Positions 28,101 through 30,941 of a stretch of 64,000 nucleotides of DNA are shown here, in pieces (position 1 is the stretch's first letter; each line of letters starts with the position of its first letter). The notes beneath the pieces were generated by a model. The model searched no databases and had not been told where the DNA came from. It was given only the letters and a program-made list of their open reading frames with translations. The translations under genes and the position numbers were made by a program. The stretch is taken from the NCBI GenBank assembly GCA_001004905.1, contig LCRY01000002.1, forward strand, positions 269,873-333,872, read 5' to 3'. Source of the stretch: Parcubacteria group bacterium GW2011_GWA1_56_13. GTDB lineage: Bacteria > Patescibacteriota > Minisyncoccia > Phycocordibacterales > Phycocordibacteraceae.

Positions 28101-30941
28101 TTACGCTACGAGATTAACGATTCTGCCCGGCACATACACGACGCGGGAAGGGGTCTTCCCCGCCAAAGCGGCTGCGACGGCTGGAAGTTTCAAAGCTTCA
28201 GCCAACGCGTCAGCTTCGCCGGCCTCGTTCGGTAACCGAATGCTGCCTCGCTTGCGGCCGGCGACTTGTACAACGACTTCCGCCGTATCCGAAACGAGGT
28301 GCGCCGGATCGTATGCGGGCCAGGACGCAAGGTGGATGGAATACGGTTCGCCAAGCCGCTCCCAGAGTTCCTCGGTGATGTGCGGTGCAAATGGCGCCAA
28401 GAGCCGTAAAAACGCGCTCCACTGTTCATGACCGATCTTCCCCTCCTTCTCGACCGCGTTGAGGAAAATCATCGCCTGACTCACCGCCGTATTGAATTTG
28501 AACGTTTCGATATCTTCCCCTATCTTCTTGATGGTTTGGTGGACAAGCGGGTCGAGTGCCGCAACCGGAGCATCAACGACGAGTTCCTGCCCGGCCCACA
28601 GCCGTTCGAGGAAGCGGGCCGTACCCGCGATAGAGGCCATGCTCCATGCCGTCGTGTTCTCGAACGGACCCATGAACATCTCGTAGGCACGGAATGCGTC
28701 GGCGCCGTACTGTGCGACGACGTCGTCAGGATTGATGACGTTCCCGAGCCGCTTGCTCATTTTGCGTCCGTCTTCGGCGAGGATGAAGCCGAGGAATTCG
28801 AGGCGCGCGAACGGCTCGCTAGTGCTCACGACTGCGATGTCGTACAAAAATTTGTGCCAGAAACGCGCGTAGATGAGATGGCGTACGGCGTGGTCGCCGC
28901 CCACATAGACGTCCACCGGCGCCCAATGCTTTTCATTCTTGGCAGAGACCAATTCGTGGTCGTTATGCGGGTCCATGAACCGGAGGTAATACCAGGAGGA
29001 GCCCGCCCACTGCGGCATGGTGTTCGTTTCTCGTGTCGCGGGACCGCCGCATTTTGGGCAAGACGTGTTGACCCAATCATGTATCGCCGCGAGCGGTGAT
29101 TCGCCCGTCCCGGTCGGTTCATACTGGTCGACGTCGGGAAGCTGTACCGGCAGATCTTCATAGGGGACCGCGACAGCGCCATCCTTCTCGCAGTGGATGA
29201 TGGGGATCGGTTCGCCCCAGTAGCGCTGGCGGGAGAACACCCAGTCGCGAAGTTTGTACCGCACGACTTTTTTCCCGCCTACCGCTCCGGTCATTTCCCA
29301 CTTCGCCTCATCGCTGTTCCTGCCGGTATACTCGCCGGAATTAACGAGCGATCCGGTTCCGGTATACGGAGCCGGCCCGTTCTGCAAAAGACGCAACGAG
29401 TGTTGATGCGTCTCCGGCGTGAGGAATTTCGCAAGCTTGTCGGGCGTAAGCCACAATAATTCGTGCTTTGCTCCTTCTTCGGGTACCACGTCTTCCCGAG
29501 CGTCATCGGCAAGCTCGACGGAAAATATATGTGCATGGACGAGCTGATTTTTCTGTTTCGGCACGTGATAGAAAAGCCCGTCCACGACCCCGAGTTTCCC
29601 CGCGATCCTCGCGTGCAGATAGCCCGTTTCTTCACGGATTTCTTTCAGCACGGTTTCTTCGGGGGTCATTCCCTCTTCGACACCGCCGGTAAGAAATGTA
29701 CCCCAGGTGACATCCTTCCATTTGAGCCCGAGATATTTCTTCTCCTTCCAGTGCCGAATGATGGCGATAACGCCATTCTTTTCCAGGATCGGTTCGCCGG
29801 GACGATAGACGCCCGGCTGCGTCGTCTGAGTGTATCGCTGCGCGATGACCTGCCGGATAGGAAGATCCATCGCGCGTGCAAATTCGAAATCGCGCTCGTC
29901 GTGCGCGGGCACGGCCATGATGGCACCCGTGCCGTATGAGCCAAGCACGTAGTCGGCGACGTATATCGGTATTTCCTCCTTGGTCGCCGGATTCGTCGCC
30001 GTGACGCCTTCAAGCTTCACGCCGGTCTTTTTTTTCCCTTCCGCGCCGCGTTCTATCTCCGTTTTTGCCTCGGCGGCTTTGATATACGCCTCAACTTCCC
30101 TTGTATTCGCGATGCGTTCAAGGAGCGCTTGTCCCGTGGGGCCCTGGCGGAGCAGCGGATGCTCGGGCGCGAGTACGAGGTAGGTCGCGCCGAAGATCGT
30201 GTCCGGACGGGTGGTGAAAACCGTCACGGATCCGTCACCTACCACAAACGGTATCTCCGCGCCTTCGGAGCGGCCGATCCAATTGCGCTGCGCCTCCTTG
30301 ATGTGTTCGGGCCAATTGAGCGCGTTCAGGTCATCGAGCATGCGGTCGGCGTACTCGGTGATCTTGAGCACCCACTGCGGCAGGCGCTTCTTGATCACCG
30401 GCGTTCCGCAGCGCTCGCACACGTTCCCGTCAAGGTCTTCGTTGGCGAGTCCGGTCATGCACGACGGACACCAGTTAATGGGCTCGTCCGACTGGTACGC
30501 GAGTCCTTGCTCGAACAGTTTCAGGAATATCCACTGGGTCCATTTGTAATAGGCGGGGTCCGTCGTGTTTATTTCCCGCGTCCAGTCGTAATCGAAGCCG
30601 AGATGCGCAAGCTGCGCCTTGAAGCGGGCGATGTTCTGTTCGACGGCTTGGCGCGGGTGCGTTTTATTCTTGAGAGCGAAGTTCTCCGCGGGCAGGCCGA
30701 ACGCGTCCCAGCCCATGGGATGCAACACCGAGAATCCCTGCATGCGCTTTTTGCGCGAGAAGACGTCGGTTGCGATATATCCCTTCGGATGGCCAACATG
30801 CAGTCCTTCGCCCGACGGATACGGGAACATGTCGAGAACGTACACCTTCTCTTTCTCCGCGTCTTCGTTCGTGCGATAGAGGCCGTCCCGCTCCCAGCGT
30901 TCCTGCCACTTCTTCTCAATAGATGAACGGTCGTAGGCCAT
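28101..30941 (-). CDS. leuS: leucine--tRNA ligase with an inserted NUDIX-like domain
   Basis: HVGHP, editing domain, KMSKR. About 160 extra residues (aa ~368-528) contain a Nudix-box-like [23 protein letters not shown]. Confidence 0.95.
   Translation of the reverse strand: [946 protein letters not shown]
29358..29840 (-). other. NUDIX-hydrolase-like domain inserted in LeuRS between the editing domain and the re-entry to the catalytic core
   Basis: Alignment from memory to E. coli LeuRS around ...VPGHDQRDYEFA...IKPVI...GVLFNSGEFNG... shows ~160 inserted residues; the Nudix box resembles MutT GGKIEMGETPEQAVVRELQEEVGI. Confidence 0.6.

Follow-up and report, generated by a model that had tools for sequence, protein, structure and literature searches.

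Few enzymes are as strongly conserved as the aminoacyl-tRNA synthetases, and extra domains in them have repeatedly led to new biology. The closest described relatives of the enzyme considered here are the bacterial leucyl-tRNA synthetases (LeuRS) of T. thermophilus (2BTE/1H3N) and E. coli (4AQ7/4ARC), with which it shares the Rossmann HIGH/KMSKS core, the ZN1-type CxxC...CxxC motif, the CP1 domain with its Thr-rich motif and conserved Asp, and the anticodon-binding and C-terminal domains, at 40% identity to the T. thermophilus protein. The longest solved LeuRS chain returned by our fold search has 876 residues, so none of the chains returned carries the feature described below, a 159-aa catalytic-type domain added within CP1. 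This added domain resembles the Nudix enzymes, which cut pyrophosphate (P-O-P) bonds. Ap4A originates mainly from aminoacyl-tRNA synthetases and is broken down by Nudix enzymes (PMC13627108). In a survey of domain insertions from 2026, the LeuRS editing domain features solely as an insert, and the number of cases in which it is the host is zero (PMC13114784). Herein we describe a leuS gene from a 64-kb stretch of DNA of a tiny-genome Patescibacteria bacterium (the window), in which the editing domain, itself an insert, is also a host, so that the insertion is doubly nested.

Host gene and borders of the insert

A sequence-only reading of the window had described a 946-aa LeuRS with HVGHP, an editing domain and KMSKR, all of which we located (Table 1). 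The protein scored 968.6 bits against the NCBIfam model TIGR00396 (leuS_bact, cut-off 548.4), in a match that the insert breaks into two. H48, V49, G50 and H51 as well as K727, M728, S729 and K730 are invariant in our alignment of 113 relatives (A1), and HIGH and KMSKS are conserved to the same degree with and without the insert. The first CP1 part holds the Thr-rich TTRPDT (aa 243–248) and an AHDERD motif with Asp348; the editing residues T243, T244, D247, T248 and D348 are equally conserved in both groups, with D348 invariant in each. When the AlphaFold model of the full-length protein (pLDDT 88.2) is compared with the LeuRS structures of T. thermophilus and E. coli, TM values reach 0.83. 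The gene neighbourhood (YchF-DUF5671-leuS-Sigma70_r4/HARE-HTH-x-YceG-MnmA) has an identical order in insert-less sisters, and a scan of the 64-kb window found neither a second leuS nor a second Nudix of the insert's subfamily. By gene order, the window leuS appears to be orthologous in position to the LeuRS that serves as housekeeping enzyme in sister genomes.

The borders of the insert were set by alignment against 26 insert-less sister LeuRS, which have a ~7-aa loop at this position (VRVVI/EHSGEQV/PYTGAG in P0057/L090), and this alignment identifies the extra segment as aa 367–525, between the segment at aa 342–366 and the conserved one at aa 530–540. The sequence-only reading had put ~160 extra residues at 29358–29840 (aa 368–528), after the editing domain; their number stands, whereas their place has to be revised. 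The PF13603 match before the insert (aa 219–372) covers only profile positions 1–146 of 185, and this incompleteness means that the insert, as Pfam models the region, interrupts the CP1 editing domain from within, the remainder of which is conserved in sequence with insert-less LeuRS. The insert is in frame, mid-gene and flanked on both sides by LeuRS sequence, and its linkers (residues 361–380 and 521–540) reach pLDDT 93–96 in the full-length model and are thus not modelled as floppy. Around the insert no convincing direct or inverted repeats, as signs of a mobile element, were found to flank it at the DNA level. A 13-nt exact repeat, GGATCGGTTCGCC (29204, 29786), was rejected as such a mark because it encodes GEPI twice and does not flank the insert.

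Table 1 Features of the window leuS gene and its insert.
Feature	Residues	Position in window	Strand	Basis or remark
leuS CDS	946 aa + stop	28101..30941	-	ORF listing
HVGHP (HIGH) class I signature	aa 48-52	30786..30800	-	Motif location
CP1 editing domain, first part	aa 219-366	29844..30287	-	Pfam PF13603, E 1.5e-56, profile positions 1-146/185
Inserted Nudix module (predicted)	aa 367-525, ~159 aa	29367..29843	-	Alignment with insert-less LeuRS
Nudix box	aa 419-441	29619..29687	-	G419, E434, E437, E438, G440 retained
Tyr458, X-loop position	17 residues past Nudix box (after Y441)	29568..29570	-	Subfamily motif F-Y-H-x-P-K-x-x-N
CP1 remainder after insert	aa 526-570	29232..29366	-	PF13603 positions 147-185, unmatched before insert
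KMSKR (KMSKS) class I signature	aa 727-731	28749..28763	-	Motif location

Nudix fold and catalytic residues

Against Pfam NUDIX (PF00293) the insert scored 42.8 bits (cut-off 21.1, E 6.4e-11, aa 392–514), the module was modelled with pLDDT 95.5, and both the predicted fold and the fold search returned an alpha/beta/alpha sandwich with Nudix proteins as structural neighbours. The profile match, which is beyond chance resemblance, the modelled fold and the conservation of the catalytic glutamates identify the insert as a genuine Nudix-fold domain, as the sequence-only reading had suspected from a Nudix-box-like signature. That signature is indeed present, though Met425 takes the place of the first Glu and Lys433 that of the Arg in GX5EX7REUXEEXGU, so that it departs from the full 23-residue consensus.

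The remaining box positions are strongly conserved among 268 related modules: G419 in 265, E434 in 262, E437 in 251, E438 in 263 and G440 in 251. This means that the triad E434/E437/E438, the metal-binding glutamates of the Nudix helix, and both box glycines are kept in 94–99% of modules that are otherwise ~34% identical. The triad is intact in 178/186 copies at site A, 24/24 at site B and 4/4 at site C (the three LeuRS sites described below), including every copy of three-module enzymes. Positions 425 and 433 covary (E-R in 157, Q-A in 33 and M-K in 13 of the 268 modules), with E at 425 and R at 433 in most family members, and the window's E425M and R433K are members of this covarying pair. 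Judged by its retained Mg2+-binding glutamates, the module is most likely catalytically active, and the lack of the first consensus Glu and the Arg could lower activity in the window's own sub-clade.

Distribution, gain and loss

Relatives of the insert were gathered by an exhaustive HMMER search with the insert and by a search with full-length LeuRS; a word-index protein search with the insert alone gave no match, which reflects the sensitivity limit of that search. Only 314 proteins among 1.84 billion representatives matched the insert by HMMER. At least 105 of the best 150 of these 314 are LeuRS or LeuRS fragments and ~30 are free-standing, and no host protein other than LeuRS was found among the same 150, so that in this set the module subfamily is fused exclusively to LeuRS. 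Related LeuRS share the insert: among the 120 top-scoring LeuRS hits, 112 full-length relatives were aligned and 86 of these have it, as do LeuRS of at least 121 GTDB species representatives, and the architecture recurs in well over 100 independent assemblies (NCBI, JGI, ENA, Logan), with a protein identical to the window LeuRS recorded from another contig (P0001). The sequence-only reading could not place a Nudix domain within a synthetase in any known family. We likewise found no description of the LeuRS-Nudix architecture in the literature searched; however, it is a lineage-wide architecture in Patescibacteria and not a single-gene oddity, and public pipelines already flag the domain, with precomputed PF00293 annotation for most of the top LeuRS relatives. 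Several insert-bearing proteins are labelled by NCBI only as 'class I tRNA ligase family protein', not as leucine--tRNA ligase.

The module belongs to a small Patescibacteria subfamily with both embedded and free-standing members. In a GTDB locus search, 79/80 module loci were embedded in leuS, a figure that may under-count free-standing genes because the search used a narrower module alignment and two peptide patterns favouring window-like modules. Free-standing copies lie directly upstream of leuS at two loci (L072, L085) and, at a third (L083), in the leuS gene string 2.4 kb upstream (P0135); a leuS-adjacent 145-aa Nudix at this third locus was rejected as a subfamily member, being a generic Nudix of only 16 bits. 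One free-standing protein (P0273) shares 71% of its residues with a module embedded in LeuRS. Other free-standing members lie far from leuS and without an RNA-binding partner, and no free-standing copy was found beside insert-less leuS at the loci of P0022, P0057 and P0079. Within LeuRS, the Nudix module was found at three sites (A, B and C), in up to three copies per enzyme, and tandem site-A pairs occur in P0173, P0237, L063 and L068.

Neither the presence nor the type of the module follows LeuRS phylogeny, and gain, loss and swapping are frequent. The cores of insert-less and insert-bearing LeuRS can be 89% identical, and parsimony requires 19 state changes in presence or absence. In several pairs the LeuRS core is 86–87% identical and the insert only 26–33%, with an overall correlation between core and insert identity of r = −0.07, in what is a crude NJ/identity analysis. 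Repeated loss from near-identical LeuRS argues that the module is not an integral proofreading step of aminoacylation, contrary to the role that the sequence-only reading had offered. Sister LeuRS carry other inserts (alpha/beta hydrolase, Ham1, HAD), making four hydrolase families in one LeuRS clade, and these unrelated inserts point to generic 'house-cleaning' passengers at least as much as to a LeuRS-specific role. At the loci examined, no defence-system context was seen around leuS.

Substrate clues

The X-loop lies ~17 residues downstream of the Nudix box, where ApnA hydrolases are marked by a Tyr, such as Tyr87 of the human Ap4A enzyme (PMC5389931). At the corresponding position, 458, the related modules are aromatic in 88% of cases (of the 268, 151 have Y and 85 have F), with K462 in 94% and N465 in 90%. 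RppH, too, carries a Tyr 17 residues after its box. The nearest solved structure to the module is 2AZW, an E. faecalis MutT/nudix family protein with no known function, followed by the ApnA hydrolases Rv2985 (M. tuberculosis) and Ndx1 (T. thermophilus) and the Aquifex, lupin and human Ap4A hydrolases; RppH, AvrM14 and other decapping Nudix enzymes are also among its structural or profile neighbours. Models of RNA pyrophosphohydrolases head the NCBIfam matches, albeit weakly (E 2.4e-5). Assigning a substrate from equivalog models or structural neighbours was rejected, given equivalog scores well under cut-off (RppH NF001935 23.9 bits vs 259; MutT 18.9 vs 148) and only 13–26% identity to solved Nudix structures.

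Hydrolysis of dinucleoside polyphosphates such as Ap4A by the module is plausible. Naming ApnN specifically as the substrate would be a tentative guess, which draws on one aromatic X-loop residue and distant structural neighbours and which we consider possible but not probable. LeuRS is not known to rank with the strongest producers of Ap4A. Aminoacyl-AMP is an acyl-phosphate without a pyrophosphate bond, and its hydrolysis by a Nudix enzyme is therefore unlikely.

Discussion

The reading that we favour, at a probability of roughly 0.6, is that of a working LeuRS with a complete, likely active Nudix pyrophosphohydrolase held in a CP1 loop as an accessory, derived from a free-standing Patescibacteria Nudix family. 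The host gene would be the organism's ordinary, functioning leucyl-tRNA synthetase, into whose CP1 editing domain, at a surface loop, a complete Nudix enzyme would have been spliced from a small family of free-standing genes, there to fold independently and keep its Mg2+-binding glutamates. Its probable substrate would be of the free nucleotide type, with Ap4A/Ap4N, which synthetases form from aminoacyl-AMP and an NTP, or a related nucleoside polyphosphate as the best guess. Residence on LeuRS would give co-expression and possibly local clearance, while coupling to LeuRS chemistry is a guess. Very close relatives do without the module, which argues that it is accessory and not a step of aminoacylation or editing.

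Several other explanations draw on the same evidence. An RNA-directed Nudix of the RppH or decapping type, which would strip RNA of 5' pyrophosphate or of NAD/Np4A-type caps, with tRNA(Leu) precursors or further RNAs brought near by LeuRS as possible targets, would fit an RNA-binding host, the X-loop Tyr shared with RppH, the decapping enzymes among the neighbours and the RNA pyrophosphohydrolase models among the best, if weak, NCBIfam matches. We nonetheless consider it rather unlikely: scores fall far under the RppH equivalog cut-offs, free-standing members lack an RNA-binding partner and close LeuRS relatives dispense with the insert. Moreover, the mature tRNA 5' end is a monophosphate made by RNase P, which leaves no obvious RNA substrate on LeuRS. 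The rapid turnover of the module could instead reflect conflict with hosts, competitors or phage, with LeuRS acting as a landing pad for exchangeable hydrolases that destroy nucleotide-like inhibitors or toxic nucleotides at the very enzyme these attack. Decoupling of module type from LeuRS phylogeny, the 19 inferred changes, the three insertion sites with up to three copies per enzyme and the four hydrolase families in the same clade would all suit this idea, but differential loss of tandem paralogues could give the same pattern, the underlying identity analysis is crude, no inhibitor or toxin is known for these organisms and defence systems were not seen around leuS at the loci examined, and we judge it unlikely.

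It is also quite improbable that the Nudix fold acts without catalysis, sensing nucleotides or serving as a structural prop and in this way regulating or stabilising LeuRS, in the manner of NrtR/AraR-type regulators or the mitoribosomal Nudix-fold proteins, since known non-catalytic Nudix domains have typically lost their metal-binding glutamates and box glycines, and the modules have kept both almost throughout. A new pre-transfer editing step, in which the module would hydrolyse non-cognate aminoacyl-adenylates, is suggested by its location, as LeuRS is a synthetase that edits and the module lies in the domain responsible, but the missing pyrophosphate bond of the adenylate, the fully kept canonical CP1 editing site, the near-identical LeuRS without the module and the family members encoded far from leuS make this very improbable. 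As the window is metagenome-type sequence, and free-standing Nudix genes adjoin leuS in some genomes, chimerism of the contig or a frameshift that fuses adjacent genes also had to be considered; the in-frame insert with LeuRS on either side, and the recurrence of the architecture across independent assemblies and in the identical protein from another contig, refute such an artefact in practice.

A broader interpretation, which strikes us as doubtful, takes LeuRS of Patescibacteria as a dedicated scaffold, with loops open to interchangeable hydrolase cassettes (Nudix in one to three copies at three sites, Ham1/ITPase, HAD phosphatase, alpha/beta hydrolase) that are repeatedly inserted, duplicated, swapped and deleted. 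If true, this would imply either an unknown mechanism that moves whole domains into and out of an essential gene, or functional coupling, whereby the cassettes would destroy Ap4N by-products or nucleotide-like inhibitors or toxins at the synthetase and LeuRS would serve translation and, at the same time, nucleotide sanitation or defence.

Under the favoured reading of an accessory Nudix enzyme, a second, apparently active enzyme would sit inside the proofreading domain of an essential synthetase. The insertion itself contradicts the survey, according to which insertions are never found in the LeuRS editing domain (PMC13114784). The module spans many Patescibacteria lineages yet is unusually often exchanged, and other 'house-cleaning' hydrolases occur in sister enzymes. 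Should the module degrade Ap4A-type by-products, an alarmone-producing synthetase would for the first time be seen physically joined to the enzyme that degrades the alarmone, and should its turnover reflect domain mobility or conflict, it would represent a new evolutionary mode for an essential gene. The hypothesis is open to direct test with recombinant protein.

Comparison with known systems

Within the Nudix superfamily, the module shares the fold, the E-x-x-E-E helix and the aromatic X-loop residue, and it equals free-standing Nudix enzymes in size (~140–160 aa). It differs from other Nudix proteins in an N-terminal extension (EPxFxQT..R..P..ER), in L-K-W before the box and in F-Y-H-x-P-K-x-x-N-R, E489 and W497 after it, and, whereas the others are free or terminally fused, it is embedded within another enzyme. 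Sporadic spread among near-identical essential host genes, together with free-standing relatives, is a trait shared with inteins; however, inteins sit in conserved motifs and are spliced out, while the module occupies variable surface loops and would be expected to remain in the mature protein. An intein was rejected on the Pfam scan, which returned no Hint/intein family, and on the junctions (VI/AQ and PA/PY), which lack splice residues (Cys/Ser/Thr start, His-Asn end, Cys/Ser/Thr next). Synthetases with appended catalytic domains, including trans-editing and fused editing modules, are to our knowledge terminal fusions. The NCBIfam entry NF040702 ('isoleucine--tRNA ligase, N-acetyltransferase domain-containing') likewise combines a synthetase with an extra enzyme domain and, given its low score, serves as a lead only. 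In such appended-domain synthetases the added part is an acyl-transfer or deacylase domain, whereas the LeuRS insert is internal, of pyrophosphohydrolase type and found at three alternative sites.

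LeuRS identity and position of the insert

At 968.6 bits with NCBIfam leuS_bact (cut-off 548.4), the leuS product of the window is identified as a bacterial LeuRS, with Pfam matches to tRNA-synt_1, the LeuRS editing domain (CP1, PF13603) and the anticodon-binding domain, and the elements quoted in the sequence-only reading (HVGHP, KMSKR and the strings at aa 342-366, 419-441 and 530-540) were all found. LeuRS from T. thermophilus and E. coli superpose on its full-length AlphaFold model (pLDDT 88.2, pTM 0.75) with TM up to 0.83. The gene order YchF, DUF5671, leuS, Sigma70_r4/HARE-HTH, 456-aa ORF, YceG, MnmA recurs around the insert-less leuS of the related proteins P0022 and P0057, and partly for P0079, which points to the window LeuRS being the housekeeping enzyme. 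Motifs of both the synthetic and the editing site are equally conserved in aligned relatives with or without the insert. The tRNA genes of the window (see table) include none for leucine.

Borders were mapped on an alignment of 112 close relatives, 26 of which lack the extra segment and have a short loop instead; the insert-less P0057, for example, reads ..VRVVI-EHSGEQV-PYTGAG against ..IRQVI-[AQRYTQ ... LLQNGPA]-PYTGTG in the window LeuRS. Because insert-less relatives hold only this short loop, the insert is delimited to 159 residues' worth of sequence at the coordinates in the table, essentially those of the sequence-only reading. That reading had placed it after the editing domain; the Pfam model puts it inside CP1, with only profile positions 1-146 of 185 matched before the insert. 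G+C across 29450-29750 is 0.53-0.55, below the 0.59-0.62 of flanking leuS, which is weak evidence but compatible with a separate origin. A DNA-level search found no repeats flanking the insert. A 13-nt exact direct repeat, GGATCGGTTCGCC, does occur within leuS at 29204-29216 and 29786-29798 (582 nt apart), both copies encoding Gly-Glu-Pro-Ile, one in the insert and the other in RYWGEPIPI; it was rejected as a mobile-element signature, since its copies do not bracket the insert, and probably arose by chance. An intein was likewise rejected, its features being absent from the Pfam scan and the junction residues.

Coordinates and occurrence of the features described
Feature	Location	Strand	Carrier or remark
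365-aa ORF	22077-23174	minus	weak match to Mrr_cat restriction endonuclease
456-aa ORF	25496-26866	minus	no Pfam match here; positional counterparts in sister genomes labelled DUF8128
leuS ORF, 946 aa	28101-30941	minus	from ORF listing
HVGHP	aa 48-52	minus	window LeuRS
KMSKR	aa 727-731	minus	window LeuRS
Nudix insert	aa 367-525; 29367-29843		window LeuRS
Cluster of six tRNA genes	35622-38200	minus	Ala-GGC, Ala-CGC, Pro-GGG, Pro-CGG, Val-CAC, Ala-TGC
tRNA-Gln	56359-56430		
Nudix box Gly	419		conserved in 265/268 related modules
Nudix box Glu	434		conserved in 262/268
Nudix box Glu	437		conserved in 251/268
Nudix box Glu	438		conserved in 263/268
Nudix box Gly	440		conserved in 251/268
Site A	position of window insert		
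Site B	immediately before CP1, ~window residue 208		
Site C	~window residue 630		
Free-standing module gene	3980-4471		locus L072; leuS from 4523, directly downstream
Free-standing module gene	6001-6534		locus L085; leuS from 6537, directly downstream
Free-standing module gene	6001-6549		locus L083; insert-less leuS 8918-11389, one gene string
Alpha/beta (serine) hydrolase insert	near CP1 start, aa ~240-360		P0005, P0014, P0075, P0123
Ham1/ITPase insert	two different sites: aa 246-389; aa 984-1167		P0091; P0205
HAD_2 phosphatase insert	near window residue 630; aa ~640-810 or 1001-1155		P0220, P0241, P0089

The insert has a Nudix fold and a conserved catalytic box

Against the Pfam NUDIX profile (PF00293) the insert scored 42.8 bits (cut-off 21.1, E 6.4e-11), and modelled alone it was predicted with high confidence (pLDDT 95.5, pTM 0.89) to have the strand-helix pattern expected for Nudix, with 541 Nudix structures retrieved by Foldseek at E <= 1e-3; the Nudix nature proposed from sequence thus held in both the profile and the structure prediction. 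The module is the highest-confidence part of the full-length model, and both its linkers have pLDDT 93-96. Compared with the Nudix-box consensus GX5EX7REUXEEXGU, the window box (aa 419-441) retains G419, E434, E437, E438 and G440, which are conserved in nearly all of 268 related modules with a mean pairwise identity of only 34%, and departs from it at two positions, where Met425 replaces the first Glu and Lys433 the Arg. Positions 425 and 433 strongly covary across the 268 modules (E-R 157, Q-A 33, M-K 13, Q-M 9), and E at 425 without R at 433 is almost absent, which we read as a putative interacting structural pair that changes together, rather than as decay of the active site. The Glu triad is kept in 178/186 modules at site A, 24/24 at site B and 4/4 at site C, multi-module enzymes included, and its retention across copies supports the module being an active hydrolase.

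A small Nudix subfamily tied to LeuRS

When the insert was searched exhaustively with HMMER against 1.84 billion representative proteins, only 314 matches reached E <= 1e-3, and the module therefore belongs to a small, distinct Nudix subfamily. Of the best 150 of these, LeuRS or fragments of it account for at least 105 and free-standing proteins (154-207 aa) for about 30, and no host family other than LeuRS appears. The free-standing members align along the entire insert, its N-terminal extension included, and are real genes, since they are encoded on long contigs; one of them, P0273, shares 71% identity with an embedded module, and another free protein, P0130, bears two modules. In GTDB species representatives 121 module loci were confirmed (Paceibacterota, Kaiser-, Adler-, Sung-, Azam-, Nomura-, Taylor-, Moranbacteria and others), and 79 of the 80 loci kept lie inside leuS, a proportion that may be biased because the search patterns favour window-like modules. 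At the loci L072 and L085 a free-standing copy precedes a leuS that has an embedded module too, and at L083 the string runs MetRS-x-TatD-Nudix-x-x-HD(YfbR-like)-x-Nudix(generic)-leuS; a further five free-standing copies lie away from leuS.

Gain, loss and turnover of the module

Nudix modules occupy three separate LeuRS sites (A, B and C), with at most three modules per enzyme (P0089, P0085, P0114, P0121, P0122) and double modules at site B in P0124 and P0125. In our distance-based phylogenetic analyses, insert-less LeuRS are scattered among insert-bearing ones on the neighbour-joining tree, where parsimony counts 19 changes in presence or absence. P0062 lacks the insert, and its core is 89% identical to those of the insert-bearing P0007 and P0041; P0074 is a second insert-less LeuRS close to insert-bearing enzymes in the alignment of full-length relatives. 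The module thus appears to be accessory to LeuRS. Across 87 insert-bearing enzymes the mean identity is 70% for the core and 34% for the insert, and the two are uncorrelated (r = -0.07). Four pairs with cores 86-87% identical (P0086/P0028, P0035/P0031, P0050/P0033, P0041/P0007) have same-site inserts only 26-33% identical; in other pairs with that core identity the inserts are ~90% identical. On this identity-based and crude analysis, both type and presence of the module would be decoupled from LeuRS phylogeny. Such turnover may reflect modules swapped like cassettes, or else tandem paralogues that were present in ancestors and differentially lost, for which the tandem site-A pairs of P0173, P0237 and the loci L063 and L068 speak.

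Likely function

We consider it probable (about 0.6) that the module is catalytically active as a Nudix pyrophosphohydrolase, with a free nucleotide-type substrate, and that a fully functional LeuRS would carry it yet not require it. The most specific guess, hydrolysis of dinucleoside polyphosphates, is tentative and rather doubtful. It is drawn from Tyr458, from the ApnA hydrolases that are several of the module's nearest structural neighbours in fold searches, from the production of Ap4A by synthetases and from the exclusive tie to LeuRS. Tyr458 lies 17 residues past the Nudix box at a position that is aromatic in 88% of modules, and an X-loop Tyr there is a marker of ApnA hydrolases (PMC5389931); Ap4A, whose chief cellular source is synthetases (aminoacyl-AMP plus ATP), is cleaved by Nudix enzymes (PMC13627108). 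Against this guess, no NCBIfam equivalog model came near its own cut-off for the module, and the closest solved structure is without known function. Other passengers also point elsewhere: the same patescibacterial LeuRS clade has in-frame hydrolase inserts other than Nudix (see table), and the genes before the insert-less leuS of L083 include TatD, two Nudix and a YfbR-like HD nucleotidase. These inserts and genes share a theme of nucleotide hydrolysis or 'house-cleaning', which suggests generic nucleotide sanitation. Hydrolysis of aminoacyl-AMP, raised in the sequence-only reading, is unlikely on chemical grounds, since the compound has no pyrophosphate bond, and also in view of an intact canonical editing site and a dispensable module.

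Annotation and comparison with known architectures

Several insert-bearing LeuRS go under the bare NCBI name 'class I tRNA ligase family protein', and a variant with the alpha/beta-hydrolase insert is entered as 'alpha/beta fold hydrolase' (naming examples among the LeuRS matches: P0015, P0023, P0034, P0046, P0048), while named insert-less sisters are 'leucine--tRNA ligase', as are the insert-bearing P0042, P0116 and P0118. Inserts may be degrading the automatic annotation of LeuRS, with these few exceptions. The architecture is visible in databases, where PF00293 is precomputed on insert-bearing proteins; we found no published account of a synthetase, LeuRS or other, with a Nudix domain, and neither tRNA nor synthetases are mentioned in a comprehensive 2017 review of the Nudix clan. 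Each of the two enzymes is well known; joined as here, doubly nested and evolutionarily restless, they form an undescribed architecture. In a 2026 survey of domain insertions the LeuRS editing domain is always the insert and never the host (PMC13114784), whereas in the window LeuRS it is itself host to the Nudix insert, and the insertion is therefore doubly nested.
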